From an uncultured Acidobacteriota bacterium (GTDB lineage: Bacteria > Acidobacteriota > Vicinamibacteria > Vicinamibacterales > UBA2999), in NCBI GenBank assembly GCA_963709325.1, contig CAVPVV010000003.1, positions 4,358,638 through 4,422,637 of the forward strand: DNA of 64,000 bases, given 5' to 3'. The notes beneath the pieces were generated by a model that saw only the letters and a list, made by a program, of their open reading frames with translations, was not told where the DNA came from and did no database searches. Below, in pieces: positions 11,347 to 62,217 of the stretch (positions within the stretch are counted from its first letter, which is position 1; each line of letters opens with the position of its first letter). Position numbers and translations under genes: made by a program.

Positions 11347-12885
11347 ATGCCCATGCATCGCTCTTCCTTGATCCGTCGCGCGATGGCTGGGCTCCTTCTC
11401 GGGCTGCTCCCGGCACTCGCCGGAGCGCAGGCCTTGCCCAACCTGTCGTTGTTGCGCGTCCGCTACAACACTGCGAAAACGAGCGCGAAGCCGGCGGGGG
11501 AGCTCAAGGCGCAGCTCGACGATGTCGACCGCGCGATCGCAGAGGCGTCACGGCTGGGGCGCAACGGCGAGGTGCGGCGGCTGATCGCCAAAGGGCTCGC
11601 GCTACTCGACGGGCGATCCTGGACACCCGAGGAGGAGTATCGCGGGTCGCTGGTGCTCCGCGCCGAGAGGGTATTCGCCGACGTTGCGCAGCCGTTCACG
11701 GTGCGCCTCGAGCAGATCTACGCGCCGGCGATCGAGCTCACCACGCCTCCTTCGGCCACCGTGACGCTCCGGCCGCTCCTCGCGCAGCCGGCGGGGACGT
11801 CCGAGTCGAGCGTTCTCACCTCGGTCGCCGACATCCCGCGCGATCTTCGCGAGTCGCCGCTCGTGCTCGATCTCGACGTGAGCAAGGCGCCTGATGGCCC
11901 CCACGAGCTCGTCGTCGAGGTCTCCCACGGCGGGCAGGCGGTCGGCCGGGTGACGATGCGGATGGCCGTGCAGCGCGGGCTCGACGCACGAGCCGCCGCC
12001 CTCGAGGCCGCGGCCGGGCGCGGGCCAGCAGCGGTCGCTGCCGACATCCGATATCCGCTCGACTACATGCGCAAGGTCAACCGCGGCCTGGTCGAGATCG
12101 GCAATTTCGATGTCGGTCGTGAGCTCGCCGCGGCTGAAGATGTGGCGCGAGCCGCTGCCGGCGGCCGCGATCCGTTCGCGGACCGCACCGGCGATTTCGA
12201 ACGCCACTATCTGCTGGCCGCCGCCGGCGAGATCATGCCCTACCGCGTCTACGTGCCCACCGAGTACGAGCGCGGCACGCCAACGCCGCTGGTCGTCGCG
12301 CTGCACGGGCTCGGCCTGAACGAAGACTCGTTCTTCGACAACTACCAGAGTGTCGCGCCGCGGCTTGCGGAGCAGTACGGGTTCCTGCTGGTAGCGCCGC
12401 TGGGATTCCGCGTCGACGGCTTTTACGGAGCGCGGCTGATGGCGGGCGGCGATCCGGCCGCCGCGCGCCGCGCGGAGCTGAGCGAGCAGGACGTGCTGCA
12501 GGTCGTGAAGCTGATGCAGGCGGACTACAGCGTTGATCCGGACCGGATGTACTTGATCGGGCACTCGATGGGAGCCATCGGTACCTGGGCGCTCGCGGCG
12601 AAGTACCCGGAAATGTGGGCGGCGGTGGCGCCATTCTCGGGCGTCGGAGCGCCGGCAACGGTGGCGGGGATGAAACACATCCCCGAGTTCGTCGTTCACG
12701 GCGACAACGATGCCACCGTCAATGTCAACGGCTCGCGGGCGATGGTCGAGGAGATGAAGAAGGTCGGCGTGGATGTGACCTACATCGAAGTTCCGGGCGG
12801 ATCCCACACCGACGTCGTCGTGCCCAACCTGCCGAAGGCGTTCGAGTTCCTGGCGGCGAAGAAACGAACGCCGGCTTCGCAGTAA
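11347..12885 (+). CDS. exported alpha/beta hydrolase (esterase/peptidase S9-like C-terminal domain)
   Basis: Signal peptide, nucleophile elbow LIGHSMGAIG, and later VVHGDNDATV and GGSHTD consistent with a Ser-Asp-His triad. Confidence 0.8.
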   Translation: MPMHRSSLIRRAMAGLLLGLLPALAGAQALPNLSLLRVRYNTAKTSAKPAGELKAQLDDVDRAIAEASRLGRNGEVRRLIAKGLALLDGRSWTPEEEYRGSLVLRAERVFADVAQPFTVRLEQIYAPAIELTTPPSATVTLRPLLAQPAGTSESSVLTSVADIPRDLRESPLVLDLDVSKAPDGPHELVVEVSHGGQAVGRVTMRMAVQRGLDARAAALEAAAGRGPAAVAADIRYPLDYMRKVNRGLVEIGNFDVGRELAAAEDVARAAAGGRDPFADRTGDFERHYLLAAAGEIMPYRVYVPTEYERGTPTPLVVALHGLGLNEDSFFDNYQSVAPRLAEQYGFLLVAPLGFRVDGFYGARLMAGGDPAAARRAELSEQDVLQVVKLMQADYSVDPDRMYLIGHSMGAIGTWALAAKYPEMWAAVAPFSGVGAPATVAGMKHIPEFVVHGDNDATVNVNGSRAMVEEMKKVGVDVTYIEVPGGSHTDVVVPNLPKAFEFLAAKKRTPASQ

Positions 12886-12925
12886 AAGAAACCACGAAGG
12901 GACGTCCCTTCGTGGTTTCTTTTTG
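12884..12925 (+). terminator. perfect palindromic hairpin AAGAAACCACGAAGGGAC/GTCCCTTCGTGGTTTCTT followed by T-run; member of the CACGAAGG word family
   Basis: 18-bp perfect inverted repeat centred at 12903/12904. It starts at the stop codon of the hydrolase gene. The trailing TTTTTGAC is identical to the end of the element at 17367-17499. Confidence 0.75.
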
Positions 12926-12943
12926 ACTGTGTACACTGCTCGG

Positions 12944-15892: not shown

Positions 15893-17365
15893 ATGACGTC
15901 TCGTCCGCCCCGCTCTAATTGGGGACTTTCGCTGGGTCTCGCTGCGCTTGCGTGCGGCGTGCTGGGGCTGGTGGCCCCGCTCGGCCTGCGTGCCCAGCAG
16001 CCGGCGCCGGCGCCAGCTGCCGCGGCTCCGGCGGTGACCTTTACGAAAGACATTGCGCCGATTCTGCAGCGCAGCTGCCAGAACTGCCATCGCCCGGGCC
16101 AGGTGGCGCCGATGTCGCTCATTTCCTACGAGGACGTGCGTCCGTGGGCGCGCGCGATCCGGCAGCGGACCTCGATTCGCGACAAGGCCGGCGCGATGCC
16201 GCCCTGGTACATCGAGAAGAACATCGGCATCCAGCAGTACAAGCACGATCCGTCGCTGTCCGACGCGGAAGTCGCGAAGATCGCGAGCTGGGTCGAGGCC
16301 GGTGCGCCGCGCGGCAACCCGGCCGACATGCCCACGCCGCTCAAGTGGGCGGACGATACGGCCTGGCAGATCGGCGAACCCGACATGATCGTGGACAGCC
16401 CCGAGATCGTCGTGAAGGCCAACGCCGCCGACTGGTGGGGCGAGCTGGAGCCGGTGAAGATCCCGCTGATGGAAGATCGGTACATCGCGGCGATCGAAAT
16501 CAAGGAAGTGAACGACGTCCCGAATGACGAGAAGGGCCGCGAGACGGTGGGCGGCCGCTATGTCTTTCATCACCTGATCTGGTCGGCGGCGGTGATCGAC
16601 GACAACGGCGAGATGCCCGAGAGCCAGGGACTCGGCCTGTGGCCGGTGCACGAAGTCGGGCGCAACGCCGACATCCTGGATCCCGACGCGGGGCGGGAGA
16701 TCAAGGCGGGCTCGAGCATCATCTTCGAGTCGACGCACCTGCACTCGAACGGGCGGGACACGAAGGCGAAGCTGCGCTTCGGCTTCAAGCTTCACCCAAA
16801 GGGCTACGAGCCGAAATACCGCAGCACGCTGCGCGCGCTCGGCAACGGGCTGGACATAGACATCAAGCCGAATGAGGCCAACCAGCAGCTGCACGCCTAT
16901 CTGGTACTCGACCGGCCGATGAAGGTCGTCACCTTCGAGCCGCACCTCCACGCGCCGGGCGCCCGGATGTGCCTCGAATACATCTGGGGCATCAACATCC
17001 AGACGGTCTCCTGCGCCGGCTACGATCACAACTGGGTCCGCCAGTACGAGTTCCAGGACGATTACGCGCCGCTGCTCCCGAAGGGCACGATCCTGCACAT
17101 CATCGGCTACATGGACAACACCGAGAAGAACAAGAACATCCCTGACCCGCGCAACTGGCAGGGCTCCGGCAATCGGTCCATCGCCAACATGTTCATCGAC
17201 CTCGGCCAGAGCGTGTCGCTCACCGAGGAGCAGTTCCAGCAGGAGATGGCGAAGCGCCGGGAGAACCGGAAGATGAAGAAGAACGACTTCTTCATCGACT
17301 GCCCGCTCTGCGGCGTGCCAGCGCCGCCCAAAACGACGAACACGGAAGTGCGCCAGCCGCAGTAA
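15893..17365 (+). CDS. exported cytochrome c domain protein fused to a PHM/DBH-like copper monooxygenase-type domain (function uncertain)
   Basis: AAGGAG RBS and a signal peptide. Heme motif CQNCH lies in TKDIAPILQRSCQNCHRPG. The downstream HH...H...HxH...M series (FHHLIW, STHLHS, EPHLHAPG, GYMDN) has PHM-like spacing. Confidence 0.75.
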   Translation: MTSRPPRSNWGLSLGLAALACGVLGLVAPLGLRAQQPAPAPAAAAPAVTFTKDIAPILQRSCQNCHRPGQVAPMSLISYEDVRPWARAIRQRTSIRDKAGAMPPWYIEKNIGIQQYKHDPSLSDAEVAKIASWVEAGAPRGNPADMPTPLKWADDTAWQIGEPDMIVDSPEIVVKANAADWWGELEPVKIPLMEDRYIAAIEIKEVNDVPNDEKGRETVGGRYVFHHLIWSAAVIDDNGEMPESQGLGLWPVHEVGRNADILDPDAGREIKAGSSIIFESTHLHSNGRDTKAKLRFGFKLHPKGYEPKYRSTLRALGNGLDIDIKPNEANQQLHAYLVLDRPMKVVTFEPHLHAPGARMCLEYIWGINIQTVSCAGYDHNWVRQYEFQDDYAPLLPKGTILHIIGYMDNTEKNKNIPDPRNWQGSGNRSIANMFIDLGQSVSLTEEQFQQEMAKRRENRKMKKNDFFIDCPLCGVPAPPKTTNTEVRQPQ

Positions 17366-17366
17366 C

Positions 17367-17499
17367 AGAAACCACGAAGGCACGAAAAGCACGAAGGACG
17401 ACACGAAGACTTTTTTGGGGTGTCACGCGTGCTTCCCCAAAGAGATTTTGGCCTTCGTGGTTCCCTTCGTGTCCTTCGAGCCTTCGTGGTTTCTTTTTG
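17367..17499. repeat. long imperfect hairpin of the CACGAAGG word family with inner TTGGGG...CCCCAA hairpin
   Basis: Outer 14-bp perfect pairing is AGAAACCACGAAGG (17367-17380) with CCTTCGTGGTTTCT (17481-17494). Inner arms match at 21 of 30 positions. It ends with TTTTTGAC as at 12921. Confidence 0.75.
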
Positions 17500-17524
17500 A
17501 CAGCGTTCAGATGGGGTCAAGTCG

Positions 17525-18473
17525 ATGACGGGACGGAGTTTTGGGGGAATGGTCGCGATCCTGGGGCTGGCGCTCGCGATGACGCGGGCCGGCGCCGGGG
17601 CGCAGTCGCTCTCGTACGGGAAGGGGCAGAACATCTCGCCCGCCTTCGAGGGCTGGGAGCAGAGCGACGACGGGTCGTTCAACATGCTGTTCGGCTACAT
17701 GAACCGCAACTGGGAAGAGGAGATTGACGTTCCGGTCGGGCCGAACAACAACATCTCGCCGGGTGACGCCGACCAGGGCCAGCCGACCCACTTCTATCCG
17801 CGCCGCAACCGTTTCGTGTTCAAGGTCAAGGTGCCGAAGGACTGGGGCAACAAGGAAGTGGTCTGGACGCTGACCACGAACGGCAAGACCGAGAAAGCGT
17901 TCGGCACGCTGCGCACCGACTCGTTCGTCGACAACCTCGTGCAGGCCTCCGAGCAGGGCGCGCTTGGCGCCGGGATGAGCTACACCGGCAATGCGCAAGA
18001 ACCAGGCGCCCACCCTCAAGGTCGACAGCGGCCCGAAACGCACCGTGAAAGTCGGCGAGCCGGTCCAGTTGATGGCCTACGCGTTCGACGACGGGATTCC
18101 GCGGCCGCGGTACGGTCCCGGATCGCGCAGCGAAAAGTACTTCGATCGTCCTGTGCAGGGCGTCCACCCGTCGCAGCGCCCCCCGGTCGCGTTGACCGTC
18201 GGCAGCCAGACCGGCCTGCGCGTCTCCTGGTTCGTCTATCGCGGTCCGAACAACGTGGCTTTCACACCGGAGCAGACCAAGGTGTGGGAGGACACGCGCG
18301 CCGGCGCCAATTCGCCGTGGGCGCCGCGGTGGGTGGCACCGACGATCCCGGAAGACGGCCGGATCGACACCACCGCCGTCTTCAGCGAGCCCGGCACCTA
18401 CGTGCTGCGCTGCCTGGCTTCGGACGGCGCCATCCAGAACACCTACGACGTCACCTTCGTCGTCACGCGATAG
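17525..18473 (+). CDS. exported hypothetical protein with C-terminal Ig-like beta-sandwich region, split by an apparent +1 frameshift near 17993-17997
   Basis: Signal peptide and plausible sequence in frame 2 up to ...GMSYTGNA. Plausible continuation KNQAPTLKVDSGPKRTVKVGEPV... in ORF 17991..18473 (frame 3). The span is 3n+1. Confidence 0.75.
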
Positions 18474-18603
18474 GAGACAGGAGGTAGGAGAGGAAATAGG
18501 AACGAGAAGCCAGGATTTGAATGCGGATTCCCCGGGTCCTGGTTCCTGGCTCCCAGTTTCTAGTTCCTGGTTCCTAGTTCCTGTCTCCTGCCTCCTCTCT
18601 CCT
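18472..18603. repeat. long imperfect hairpin built from AGGAG/GGAAC words (left) and CTCCT/GTTCC words (right)
   Basis: AGGAGACAGGAGGTAGGAGAGGA (left) against the reverse complement of TCCTGTCTCCTGCCTCCTCTCTCCT is about 85 percent identical by hand. It starts on the stop codon and ends 22 nt before the next ATG. Confidence 0.65.
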
Positions 18604-59800: not shown

Positions 59801-59915
59801 TGCCAACCCCGTGCTCGGTGTGCAGTCGGTGAACTTCGCCACCGCGTCGTACAACCAGCCGAACGCAATCCTGAACGGCAGGACGTTCCGCGTCGGCGCT
59901 CAGCTCCGCTGGTAA
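56895..59915 (+). CDS. TonB-dependent receptor-like outer-membrane protein with N-terminal carboxypeptidase-regulatory-like domain
   Basis: AGGAGG RBS and a signal peptide. CarboxypepD_reg pattern GSVRDTSGAVLPGVTVEA...TDANGSYRIVDLRPGTYTLVFSLTGF. Long beta-barrel ending FRVGAQLRW. Confidence 0.9.
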   Translation: MSAAIRHVPRSAWLAGALLLLAAHTALAQSVFTGSVRDTSGAVLPGVTVEASSPVLIEGTKSAVTDANGSYRIVDLRPGTYTLVFSLTGFKSARFEGVELRTDFTATFNANMEVGALEESITVTGASPVVDVSSNSKIEVLTREVLDQVPTGRNIQAYAQLVSGVSLNVPDVGGSRGMQQTYMSTRGLTSANNIVTVDGLMVNGLDGDGAVQQYFNQAMVQEMSYQTSGAGADVSPGGVRMAIVAKDGGNQFNGSFFAGWTQKSWVANNLDDDLRSRGLGNAGGVDRVYDFNVGVGGPIKRDKIWFFASARAWSVDAPIGNTFITPDNLSYNAGYQACRTGAIGCEPGIDDQSIESALARFTWQVSPKHKFSVYYDEINKYRGHGMNAGDDPNTASQIWTSPRYNSAAAKYTGTLSSSLLVEGGYSFNFEEYVITNQPGVNKTPFSPEWYAGASRRDANLTTLYSGLANWGGRYPDRFAAAMSLSYITGSHNLKLGFQDNWGPYINTRETNADLQQVYLSGVPSQVAIYNTPIRQKDSLLADIGLYAQDTWTMNRLTVNAGLRWEYLKQEVSATTSGQGRFVPERSFDAVQMPVWKDIAPRVGVVYDLFGNAKTAVKFSVNRYNESRTTMFANRYNPLALTSATLSWTDLNTNDIAEGPVGCTYLTTGCEINYAQMPRNFGVRSLNTVDPDFQRTYNWETTAGVQHELFPRVSVSATWYRREFHDLRVTDNLARTMDDYFPISVVSPLDGSVFNIYSINPALRTLVDNFDTNATEGFEQVYNGFDVTFNARLPRGGAAFGGFTTERTTRVVCGEPDDPNMLRFCDDADNDIPWRPQMKISGTYPLVWGIQISGAFQSLAGRALGGYPTAAPVFVNKIQGPGYGDVGSPAGTSWLITPTTRYAASCTGPCRPGELVAPNLSEAQLIVPLVAPGTEFLPRLNQFDLSFAKWFGIGGSRRVQGQLDIFNVFNANPVLGVQSVNFATASYNQPNAILNGRTFRVGAQLRW

Positions 59916-59972: not shown

Positions 59973-60011
59973 GACCCGGAGGATCGCGCGCCTCGATCCT
60001 CCGGGTCTTTT
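59973..60011. terminator. rho-independent terminator between convergent genes
   Basis: Perfect 14-bp stem GACCCGGAGGATCG / CGATCCTCCGGGTC, a 7-nt loop, then TTTT. Confidence 0.8.
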
Positions 60012-60030: not shown

Positions 60031-62217
60031 TCACCGCAGAGCCTTCTTTGCGGTGACTAAGTTTTGCTTTGCGTCGCCGAAGTCTGGGTCGATGGCGAGT
60101 GCCTGTTCGAACAGCGGAATAGCCTCCCGAATCTGGCCTTGCGACGCGAGCGCGATGCCGAGGTTGTTGAGGGTGCGCGGATCGCGGGGGCGGGAGGCGA
60201 GCGAGGCGCGAAACCGGGCGGCGGCCTCGGCGTGGGCGCCGATCTCCAGCAGCAGGCTGCCCAAGTCGTAGTTGGCGTCGGCGTCGGCCGGGGCAAGGGC
60301 GACGGCCTGTTCGAGCGCCTGCCGCGCTTCGGCGGATCGCCCGGTGGCCGCCAGGGCATTACCGAGATTGCGGTAGGCGAGCACGGAGGCCGGCTCCAGC
60401 GCGATGGCGTTGCGGAATTCGACGATCGCCGGCTCCATTTGACCTTTTTCGGCCAGCGCGGTGCCGAGATTGTTGTGGTTTGCCGCCGACGCGGGCTCGC
60501 CAGCGACCGACGTCGCCAGGTGCGCGGCGGCTTCGTCGGCGCGGTTCTGCGACAAGAGCGCGTTGGCCAGGTTGTAATGCAGGTCGGGGTAGTCGTCGTC
60601 GAGCCGCAGCCCGCGCTGGTAGGCGGCGATAGCGGCATCGACGTCGCCCTTCGCCCGTAGGGTCACGCCGAGGTTGTTGTAGGCCGGCGCGTAATCGGGC
60701 TGCAGCGCCACTGCCTTCTCGTAGCGGCTGACGGCCTCGTCGAGGCGCCCTGCCTCATAAAGCGCGGTGCCGAGGTTCGTCTCGGTGATTGCGCGCATCC
60801 GCGTCGGCGACAACAGCGGCCAGTTGGTTGCGATCGCCGCCACGATGACGGCGGCACCGATCCATGCGCGCCGCGCAGGCGATGCCGGCCTCAAAAGCCC
60901 CGGCAGCGAGACGACGCCGACGGCGGCAAAGAGCAGTAGAAACGGCACCAGCGGGAATCGGTAGCGCGCGAAGACGAAGAACAGCACGACGCTGGCCGCG
61001 TAGACGCCGAAGAAGGCCAATACTGGCCACAGCCGCCGCCGATCCGGCCACATCGCAATCAGCCCGACGAGCGCCAGCGGCACCAGGATCCCGAAGTGCC
61101 CGACCAAGGCGAGCGCGCGGAGCAGCGGTGAGACGTCCTCGTAGCTCTCCTGGCTCTCCGTGTCCAGCATCTCGCTCGCGTTCCACAGCAGCGCGAATTT
61201 TCTGCCCATCAGCACGGTCCAGCGACCGGGCGAGCTGCTGATGAAACCAAGCGCGCGGCCGCGCCAGTACGCCGAGACTTCGCCAGGCGACACGGGGTGC
61301 CCGAGCGCCCGCTCGGCCAGCTCGGTCGCGTCCTGCCGCTCGAACTCCGGCGCGCCGCGCCCCGGCCGCAGCGACATATAGGTGCCGTCGGCTCCGGGGT
61401 TGTTCCCGATGAAGAAATTGGGGCCGAACTGCGACGTCGTCAGGTAGACGCCGCCGTCGACCGCGTAATTGCGTGCGACGACCGGCAGCAGCACGAGCGA
61501 GATCCCGGCCAGGAGTGCCACTGCGGGAACACGAAGCACACAAAGGACGGTCTTTTCCTCGTGTTCTTCGTGTGATTCGTCTCCTTCGTGTTTCCCGCCC
61601 TTCGACACGGCCCAGATGATGGCGACCACCACTAACGCCAGCGCGTTCTCGCGCGTCAGGCTGAGCGCGCCGAGCGCCGCGCCGAGCGCCACCCACAGCC
61701 CCGGGCGCGGGGAGCCGGCAATCAACCGACTCGAGATCCACAGGGTCAGGCACATGAAGAAGACGTCGAGCACGGTCTTCTGCAGCAGCACGTCGAAGAA
61801 GATTGCCGGCGCGCACAGCGCCAGGCCGAGTCCGGCGATCCAGCCGACGCGCCGGGAGAAGAGACGTTCGCCAGCCTGCGCCAGCAGGACCGCCGACGCT
61901 GCGCCGACGAGAGCCTGGACGATGCGGACGATGAGCAGGTCGCGTCCCGCGATCGCGTAAAGCCCACCCAGGAAATACGGGTAGAGCGGCGCCTGGTAGA
62001 AGACGTCCGTTCCGATCCAGTCGCCGGCCGCGAGTCGTGTCGCCCAGGCGTCGTAGCTGCGGGCGTCACCCATCAGCACGTCGAAGAACGGCGTGCCCCG
62101 AATTGCCCACAAATGGACGAGGCGCGCCGCCACCGCGACCCCGAAGACGACCCCGGCCATCATGTCCAGACATGGTAACCGCGCGGCACTTTCGCCTTTT
62201 GTCGCGCTGGCTTGCAT
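60031..62217 (-). CDS. membrane glycosyltransferase-like (GT39/ArnT-like) protein with C-terminal TPR repeats
   Basis: About 11 hydrophobic helices in the N-terminal 470 aa (DARSYDAWA...YQAPLYPYFLG), then at least 7 TPR units (AxxYxNLGxAL pattern). The start could be Met19 at 62163. Confidence 0.8.
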   Translation of the reverse strand: MQASATKGESAARLPCLDMMAGVVFGVAVAARLVHLWAIRGTPFFDVLMGDARSYDAWATRLAAGDWIGTDVFYQAPLYPYFLGGLYAIAGRDLLIVRIVQALVGAASAVLLAQAGERLFSRRVGWIAGLGLALCAPAIFFDVLLQKTVLDVFFMCLTLWISSRLIAGSPRPGLWVALGAALGALSLTRENALALVVVAIIWAVSKGGKHEGDESHEEHEEKTVLCVLRVPAVALLAGISLVLLPVVARNYAVDGGVYLTTSQFGPNFFIGNNPGADGTYMSLRPGRGAPEFERQDATELAERALGHPVSPGEVSAYWRGRALGFISSSPGRWTVLMGRKFALLWNASEMLDTESQESYEDVSPLLRALALVGHFGILVPLALVGLIAMWPDRRRLWPVLAFFGVYAASVVLFFVFARYRFPLVPFLLLFAAVGVVSLPGLLRPASPARRAWIGAAVIVAAIATNWPLLSPTRMRAITETNLGTALYEAGRLDEAVSRYEKAVALQPDYAPAYNNLGVTLRAKGDVDAAIAAYQRGLRLDDDYPDLHYNLANALLSQNRADEAAAHLATSVAGEPASAANHNNLGTALAEKGQMEPAIVEFRNAIALEPASVLAYRNLGNALAATGRSAEARQALEQAVALAPADADANYDLGSLLLEIGAHAEAAARFRASLASRPRDPRTLNNLGIALASQGQIREAIPLFEQALAIDPDFGDAKQNLVTAKKALR
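61525..61596. repeat. CACGAAG-word hairpin element embedded in frame inside the GT39/TPR gene
   Basis: GGGAACACGAAG...CTTCGTGTTTCCC arms. On the coding strand it reads GKHEGDESHEEHEEKTVLCVLRVP with no stop. Codons were checked by hand. Confidence 0.7.

Follow-up and report, generated by a model that had tools for sequence, protein, structure and literature searches.

How does a palindromic DNA repeat come to lie, in frame and without a stop codon, inside the gene of a membrane enzyme, and what becomes of it there? The question is raised by a hairpin-forming element at positions 61525-61596 of a 64-kb stretch of DNA (henceforth termed the window: 64,000 nucleotides of contig CAVPVV010000003.1, from an uncultured Vicinamibacterales bacterium of the phylum Acidobacteriota). 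An initial annotation, made from the letters alone, had described the element as an inverted repeat of CACGAAG words inserted into a glycosyltransferase gene, had related it to intergenic hairpins at 12884 and 17367, and had likened it to Rickettsia palindromic elements (RPEs). In-frame palindromic repeats are documented in other bacteria (PMC10969869; PMC3733652). Here, we compare the element with its orthologous sites and with related repeats elsewhere, and we conclude that a palindromic repeat dispersed in Vicinamibacterales has probably left here an in-frame copy that is tolerated, has been passed on vertically and is now decaying, and that encodes a disordered spacer in a permissive loop.

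An in-frame hairpin inside a membrane glycosyltransferase gene

The element (GGGAACACGAAGCACACAAAGGACGGTCTTTTCCTCGTGTTCTTCGTGTGATTCGTCTCCTTCGTGTTTCCC) starts with GGGAACACGAAG and ends with CTTCGTGTTTCCC. Its inverted repeats are nested: 61525-61544 pairs with 61576-61595 (20 nt, 80%), and 61529-61541 pairs with 61561-61573 (13 nt, 92%). Folded as RNA, the coding (minus) strand of 61515-61606 reaches -38.1 kcal/mol compared with -24.4 +/- 3.1 kcal/mol for dinucleotide shuffles (z -4.44), and none of 200 shuffles matches this stability; the hairpin that the initial annotation had recognized is thereby confirmed. The coding-strand 5' arm (61576..61595, minus strand; CACGAAGG, GACGAATC) encodes a His/Glu-rich half and the 3' arm (61525..61544, minus strand; CCTTTGTGTGCTTCGTGTTCCC) encodes VLCVLRVP. 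Exact CACGAAG-type words stand at 61584-61590 and 61566-61572. The stem is followed by CCCGCAGUGGCAC and not by a U-run, so that the element lacks the stem-plus-U-run signature of an intrinsic terminator. CACGAAG occurs 22 times in the window, where 10.5 +/- 3.1 occurrences are expected, and half of these words (11/22) sit in three hairpin-oriented clusters at 12893-12914, 17373-17488 and 61530-61590. A search of the whole window against Rfam at gathering thresholds returned no match, and relaxing the threshold to E <= 1-5 around all three copies gave sub-threshold chance matches only.

The surrounding open reading frame (ORF; 60031..62217, minus strand, 728 amino acids) contains ...AVSKGGKHEGDESHEEHEEKTVLCVLRVPAVALL..., and its context around the insert reads ...WAVSKGGKHEGDESHEEHEEKTVLCVLRVPAVALLAG.... 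The 72 nt of the hairpin are in frame and stop-free, as had been proposed, and correspond to residues 208-231 (GKHEGDESHEEHEEKTVLCVLRVP). Pfam assigns residues 75-207 to PMT_2 (E 1.9e-14) and finds many TPR repeats from about residue 475 to the C-terminal side. The description of the host as a membrane glycosyltransferase with TPR repeats thus holds, while the label GT39 was imprecise, since the match is to PMT_2 of the GT-C type and not to the PMT family proper. Homologues are abundant, the named ones belonging to Vicinamibacterales/Acidobacteria. The gene is convergent with a gene for a CarboxypepD_reg/TonB-like outer-membrane protein, and this synteny is retained in orthologue contigs.

An AlphaFold2 model of the host protein, built with 59 orthologues, is confident overall (predicted local distance difference test, pLDDT, 89.3; predicted template modelling score, pTM, 0.85). 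Apart from the first four residues, pLDDT falls below 50 only at 211-228, a non-helical stretch between helices 190-207 and 230-254. The insert-encoded segment is thus predicted to be a disordered loop, the sole internal low-confidence stretch of the model, and its proposed position between two helices is borne out. This loop is probably cytoplasmic: short loops rich in Arg, which the positive-inside rule assigns to the cytoplasm, are found at 118-123, at the insert site in its uninterrupted form (RGRRR), at 393-395 and at about 447-456, and a large conserved region at 255-377 looks like an outward-facing catalytic loop. Foldseek against the PDB returned mostly TPR matches and no solved homologue usable for topology, and phmmer of the membrane domain against the PDB gave no match.

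Orthologous sites carry the same hairpin, a remnant or a short loop

We aligned the best 60, and later the best 120, homologues of the host protein. Between the two invariant residues W202 and G238 the interval ranges from 14 to 94 residues across the 120. A short base-state loop is present in 18/120 (for example IVLRGRRRAEAAAFVL), and distant orthologues have an Arg-rich loop of 8-9 residues at the insert site, such as RGRRRAEA. The DNA of one such base-state loop, in locus L204, forms no significant hairpin (z -1.6), and the notion that empty loop DNA acts as a seed hairpin was rejected on this fold. Segments with HEG/HEE-type followed by LRV/LRG-type repeats, or with TKD... followed by SSW/PSW..., were found in 21/120 homologues; both kinds arise when CACGAAGG and CCTTCGTG are translated in different frames. 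A neighbour-joining tree computed from the flanks places the carriers on the side closer to the window protein and the short-loop proteins on the far side.

At the DNA level, eight orthologous loci were compared. Seven of them have an in-frame hairpin at the identical site, with CACGAAG in the left arm and CTTCGTG in the right arm; these hairpins measure 61-235 nt and fold with -42 to -127 kcal/mol. In the eighth locus, L004 (75% identical), a decayed remnant is all that is left. Two classes of ends can be distinguished. The copies in L005, L007 and L008 have the ends GAAACCACGAAG...CTTCGTGGTTTC; the two intergenic elements of the window (12884 and 17365) and family members in other Vicinamibacterales genomes have these ends too. 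The window copy and those of L001-L003 and L006 have the ends GGGAAACACGAAGG...GTGTTCCC, with boundaries displaced by about one codon. The centre of the L006 copy is made of 7-nt repeats (GIRGQGS...) and matches one type of intergenic centre. Word counts of the two arms are often unequal (1 vs 6 in L006, 4:2 in the window), and in L005 and L008 a U-rich tract (GGUUUCUUCU) follows the stem.

These comparisons uphold the proposal that the segment is an insertion, as distant orthologues have an RGRRRAEA-type loop in its place. The alternative of an ancestral loop, conserved as protein with unrelated codons, does not hold, as the nearer orthologues carry the same DNA words. The comparisons also lead beyond the initial annotation, in that the insertion appears to be old and inherited rather than recent, probably the result of a single ancient event, and in that the loop has been colonized by other hairpin repeats in other lineages.

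A repeat family dispersed between genes

Two further copies lie between genes of the window. The first (12884..12926), placed right after the TAA of the esterase-like gene 11347..12885, consists of AAAGAAACCACGAAGG-GACGTC-CCTTCGTGGTTTCTTTTT, that is, a minimal copy with one word per arm and a GACGTC centre, and a DUF4159 gene lies just beyond it. The second (17365..17500) is of full length: CACGAAG occurs three times, GGGGTGTCACGCGTGCTTCCCC forms the middle, CTTCGTG follows three times and then comes a T-run; it sits between the co-directional genes 15893..17365 and 17525..18487. Both have common ends, (A)AGAAACCACGAAGG...CCTTCGTGGTTTCTTTTTGAC.

A scan for exact AAAGAAACCACGAAGG, with one genome per species, was used to collect relatives; its counts refer to the matches listed. 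Among these are many contigs of Vicinamibacterales/Acidobacteria metagenome-assembled genomes (DAIRFN01, DATJFF01, JADZCN01, MELE01), and other taxa contribute single non-hairpin matches that are probably due to chance. Family members of about 50-260 bp are built on one plan, in which an end and two to four further words lead to a centre, beyond which the words recur in mirror image up to the opposite end. Two kinds of centre occur, a GGGGTGTCACGCGTGACACCCC-type palindrome and a series of 7-nt repeats (TCTTGGG/CCAAGAC), and AAAGAAACCACGAAGG and CCTTCGTGGTTTCTTT form terminal inverted repeats on both sides of about 30 copies. Elements usually follow a stop codon immediately and are preceded by an A-run and succeeded by a T-run. 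The literature on the CACGAAG word and on palindromic repeats in Vicinamibacteria yielded no account of the family, which is apparently undescribed so far.

A profile hidden Markov model (HMM) was built from 56 termini of intergenic copies from other genomes. Its consensus, ggcaaAAAGAAACCACGAAGGCACGAAGG, has no GTAG or CGTC tag. The profile matches both ends of the full-length window copy (17500-17464, E 8e-8; 17365-17398, E 2e-5) and of the minimal copy (12926-12903, E 8e-4; 12883-12904, E 2e-3). Among the in-gene copies it recognizes both ends in L008 (E 8e-7 and 3e-6) and in L005 (E 2e-3 and 7e-3), and one end in L007 (E 0.02). Through these orthologous matches (E 8e-7 to 0.02), the proposed kinship of the in-gene hairpin with those at 12884 and 17367 is supported. 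As canonical copies occupy the same codon position in orthologues, the window's in-gene element (61525..61596, minus strand), with its hairpin, its GAA/CTT/CGT codons and its counterparts in orthologues, is by sequence comparison a decayed member of the family.

Variants of this anatomy were also seen. The tandem TCTTGGG/CCAAGAC centre replaces the GTCACGCGTGAC palindrome in L125 (3474-3609), L018, L023, L038, L042, L058, L061, L067 and L068, and inverted arrays of related heptamers (CGGGTAAT, GGATTGC) form separate hairpin elements in L135, L139-L141 and L145. A canonical full-length element is present in L048 (DAINBS010000241.1), a contig labelled Gemmatimonadales, which means either that the family extends beyond Vicinamibacterales or that this contig is mis-binned.

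By their anatomy, the intergenic copies look like bidirectional terminators or like intercistronic hairpins of the repetitive extragenic palindromic (REP) kind. At the 17365-17500 site, the flanking co-directional genes adjoin each other in several relatives, ATG coming immediately after TAA. An operon would be split here by a strong terminator, which makes a REP-like role as partial attenuator or mRNA stabilizer more plausible than full termination. Elsewhere in the window, an unrelated, classical-looking terminator hairpin (59973-60007; 14 pairs, then TTTTG) lies between the convergent outer-membrane protein gene (ending at 59915) and the glycosyltransferase gene (ending at 60031), so that the CACGAAG family is not the only type of 3'-end hairpin in the window.

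How often do such copies enter genes? With a threshold of three words, there are 35 clusters in the window and in the loci of the orthologues and of the genome scan taken together; only eight of these clusters are crossed by an ORF with a high G+C content at third codon positions (GC3). All eight are in the glycosyltransferase gene and its orthologues, one being the window's own. Six clusters in 337 kb of metagenome loci and the 12884 copy, which lies below the threshold, were added to this census, and none of the other copies, about 33 by this sum or 39 as counted otherwise, is intragenic. The family thus looks rarely intragenic. A synthetic HEGx6/LRVx5 peptide retrieved only short ORFans from a protein database (E >= 0.04), a weak negative as even the known orthologues escaped this search. 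These ORFans of 37-75 amino acids (for example ...NHEEHEGHEGKKEETVLRGFSLLRDLRVLRGR) are evidently gene calls over intergenic hairpins. Dozens of public 'proteins' of this size (P0121-P0179) read HEGHEG... and then ...LRVLRVLRG; the flanks of some are rich in Lys, Asn and Ile, which suggests lower-GC genomes and may place CACGAAG-type hairpins outside Vicinamibacterales. In L160 (about 1990-2046), the left arm is part of the upstream gene, at its 3' end (...KHEKHEDEI*), and the right arm comes after the stop, an arrangement that would be a second route into coding sequence, by C-terminal extension.

DNA words rather than the peptide are conserved

We consider here the reading in which a His/Glu-rich, possibly metal-binding, cytoplasmic loop was selected as such. 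HEGHEG-type runs may resemble metal-binding motifs, and the segment has stayed in frame in many orthologues. Lineages nevertheless read the same words in different frames, HEG/LRV in some and TKD/SSW-PS in others (TKDTK, SSWxSSC), which largely refutes this reading, and the length of the segment varies from 14 to 94 residues. The codons are of the element's type and not of the host's: in the inserts of the eight orthologues GAA makes up 78% of Glu codons (20% outside the inserts), CTT 70% of Leu codons (3%) and CGT 43% of Arg codons (6%), and GC3 is 0.54 in the insert and 0.89 elsewhere. The differing frames and the element-type codons together indicate conservation of the DNA and not of the peptide.

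The comparison of the window with its nearest orthologue, L001, goes in the same direction. Identity in the insert is 71% for amino acids and 81% for nucleotides, compared with 91-95% and 92-94% in the flanks, and nonsynonymous and synonymous codon differences stand at 7:5 in the insert vs 38:90 in the flanks. As the segment is also modelled as disordered, we regard selection for the encoded peptide as very improbable.

The reading frame has left its trace on the repeat in turn. Words within the gene are spaced by 9, 12 or 18 nt in 25/27 cases, a count over orthologous and hence non-independent copies. Between genes, the spacing is a multiple of three in 40/98 cases and most commonly 8 nt (Fisher p 7e-7 against the in-gene copies, with the same non-independence). 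Intergenic copies have on average 3.3 of six frames open over about 137 nt, compared with 1.0 in shuffles, and this scarcity of stops would allow a copy to survive inside a gene.

Probable inheritance of a single copy and its alternatives

The history that we consider probable would have begun when one family copy entered the DNA for the short Arg-rich loop of the PMT_2/TPR protein in the ancestor of a sub-clade. It may have persisted because the element is poor in stops in most frames and because the loop tolerates any length. Later evolution would have proceeded by gain and loss of whole words in steps of 9 or 12 nt, by internally compensated frame shifts and by decay, leaving a disordered spacer without conserved sequence. 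The intragenic copy would be neutral in this history. Several observations weigh against it, and they are set out below with the alternatives on which they bear.

The window's own in-gene copy does not match the terminal profile significantly (E 21). Taken by itself, this failure would suit an inverted repeat that arose by chance, or a local expansion of a 9-nt microsatellite with no link to the intergenic hairpins, and slippage could produce the 9-nt periodicity. Such an origin is hardly conceivable in view of three exact hairpin-oriented 7-mers in 72 nt, on a background of about ten words per 64 kb, of the fold (z -4.4) and of orthologous copies that bear both canonical family ends. A simple terminator scan of the window likewise failed to flag the intergenic family copies, probably because the A-run pairs with the T-run; it did pick up the unrelated hairpin at 59973-60007. 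As for mobilization, neither a target-site duplication nor another mechanism was found, although no search aimed at transposases was made; no consistent direct repeat stands beside the copies, and occupied and empty sites (60-69% amino acid identity) are too divergent to define junctions.

A further objection comes from the codons. The insert shows no codon amelioration even though orthologues with as little as about 65-70% identity carry it, a finding that pure neutrality leaves unexplained and that hints at a nucleotide-level constraint, at concerted evolution or at re-insertion. The last of these would make the site a hot spot that received several independent and recent insertions of the CACGAAG element, with the site or a pre-existing hairpin attracting palindromic repeats. 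Besides the GC3 contrast (0.54 vs 0.89), this reading could account for the two end classes, GAAACCACGAAG...GGTTTC in L005, L007 and L008 vs GGGAAACACGAAGG...GTGTTCCC in the window, L001-L003 and L006. The derived ends common to the window, L001, L002 and L003 (78-92% identical) nevertheless fit vertical descent, the decayed remnant of L004 is nested among carriers, the carriers lie on one side of the tree, and the empty state has neither a target motif nor a hairpin.

Other hairpin families bear on the same issue. The more distant orthologue L122 has two inverted REP-like units in the loop (AGTCCGGCTAAAGCCGGACT ... GTCCGGCTTCAGTCGGAC), read as RLKPDSTY...SGFSRT and folding with -51.3 kcal/mol (z -4.8). 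L123 has three GCGACGGCTWMAGCCGTCGC mini-hairpins, read twice as RRLKPSLS (z -5.0). Loops of the REP type occur in about 12/120 orthologues and an IPDSGS-type segment in 7/120. The glycosyltransferase loop is therefore, as far as these sequences indicate, a recurrent sink for hairpin repeats.

Families also replace one another at an intergenic site, downstream of the orthologues of the window gene 15893..17365. The CACGAAG element is present there in L124-L126 (81-85% identity) and in L153, L160 and L169 (60-62%). In L131, L133, L134, L136 and L138 the site is empty, with TAA directly followed by ATG; in L127-L130, GTAG-tagged REP-like stem-loops (GTAGGGTCCGGCTTTAGCCGGACC) stand just after the stop; and in L135, L139-L141 and L145, inverted arrays of 7-8 nt repeats take this place. 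These four states indicate that the family has been gained and lost and that hairpin families replace one another. The idea that the element supplies the TAA stop of the upstream gene was rejected, as empty orthologous sites already end in CAGTAA. The REP type of L127-L130 is the one that recurs in the L122 glycosyltransferase loop as an in-frame inverted dimer.

Both the swapping at the intergenic site and the unrelated hairpins in the loop (REP-dimer-like in L122, three mini-hairpins in L123, the IPDSGS type) speak for a hot spot, which we hold to be possible but doubtful beside vertical inheritance of one copy. The same hairpins could mean selection for a hairpin and not mere tolerance. The selected structure would be an mRNA or DNA hairpin, which might make translation pause between two transmembrane helices, serve as an intragenic attenuator dependent on translation or offer a site to a CACGAAG-binding protein. 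Three or more unrelated hairpin families converge on the loop, words and pairing have been kept against strong GC3 pressure, all carriers fold far more stably than typical sequence, and in L005 and L008 the U-rich tract (GGUUUCUUCU) follows the stem. Many orthologues manage with an eight-residue loop and no hairpin, however, and among carriers arm number, length and stability vary about three-fold, with arms often unequal (1 vs 6 in L006, 4:2 in the window); the L004 remnant shows decay and the window copy has no U-run. Genes such as uvrA and uvrB, among others, are repeatedly decorated by different REPs in different species without a function having been shown for them (PMC3733652). We consider a selected hairpin distinctly improbable.

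Because at least three unrelated families converge on the loop, and because CACGAAG words are kept against GC3 pressure down to about 65-70% identity, the wider proposal can be made that hairpins in the loop DNA are maintained actively and do not merely accumulate there. It is unlikely in our judgement. If true, it would imply a sequence-specific mechanism, for example concerted evolution by a word-recognizing enzyme or homing of palindromes to existing hairpins, or else selection for a role in the RNA, for example in pausing or attenuation coupled to translation between the transmembrane helices.

Comparison with known repeat systems

The tolerated, inherited copy that we favour behaves much like RPEs, as the initial annotation had noted. 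RPEs are likewise dispersed palindromes that lie in frame in functional genes, add a stop-free peptide at fold-compatible sites and also occur between genes (PMC10969869; PMC3733652). The CACGAAG element shares the in-frame, stop-free position in a functional ORF, yet the family is not an RPE. Its hosts, among the matches listed, are Vicinamibacterales of the Acidobacteriota and not Rickettsia, no sequence kinship with RPEs is evident, and its arms are arrays of a 7-8 nt word around a variable centre. RPEs very often lie within genes (nearly half of the copies in three families) and encode a conserved peptide; none of the about 33 other CACGAAG copies is intragenic, and the reading frame varies.

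Intragenic REPs and REP dimers (GTAG/CGTC-tagged, REPIN-RAYT) are similar in being high-copy palindromes that lie just 3' of genes, between convergent or co-directional ORFs, and that occasionally insert in frame and add 20-80 residues (PMC3733652). The CACGAAG family shares the multi-copy, extragenic and mostly 3' placement. It differs in lacking the GTAG/CGTC tag (terminal consensus AAAGAAACCACGAAGG), in its tandem words and in its length, at 50-260 bp instead of the 20-40 bp of a tagged palindrome. Miniature transposable elements with inverted repeats (MITEs; Correia/NEMIS, ERIC, Nezha, BOX, RUP) come close in that they are of like size (50-260 bp), have terminal inverted repeats and no coding capacity, are present at some orthologous sites and absent from others, and now and then fuse in frame with genes (PMC10969869). 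Terminal inverted repeats and presence/absence polymorphism at orthologous sites are indeed found in the CACGAAG family, but internal word arrays and swappable centres are unusual for a MITE. At the divergent sites compared, no target-site duplication is evident.

A last likeness is to bidirectional intrinsic terminators: intergenic CACGAAG copies come directly after stops, and their long stem stands between an A-run and a T-run. SPRITE is a Rho-independent terminator-like repeat that resembles them in this respect. The resemblance ends with the in-gene copy, which has lost the T-run, and with those intergenic copies that lie between genes contiguous (TAAATG) in relatives. SPRITE is named, for Streptococcus pneumoniae, among the repeats in PMC10969869. 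The element thus behaves like RPEs and like intragenic REPs and MITEs, yet belongs to none of those families, from which it is set apart by its host, by its sequence ends and by the lack of a tag. The likeness to RPEs stands for the behaviour and falls for the family, which is rarely intragenic.

Significance

The phenomenon itself is familiar; what deserves attention is the apparently undescribed repeat family, the series of orthologues under the constraint of a frame and the puzzling maintenance of the words. The absence of codon amelioration raises the question of what maintains such repeats. For annotation, the family is of practical value, as it yields many spurious ORFs of 40-75 amino acids ('HEGHEG...LRVLRV') as well as odd low-complexity loops in real proteins. 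The analysis defines an apparently undescribed and abundant repeat family of Vicinamibacterales, with word arrays and swappable centres, and extends to Acidobacteriota the RPE and intragenic REP phenomenon of selfish palindromes that decorate proteins. With its eight-residue base state, inserts of 24-94 residues and decayed remnants, the orthologue series is a natural time course that shows how a palindrome evolves under the constraint of a reading frame.

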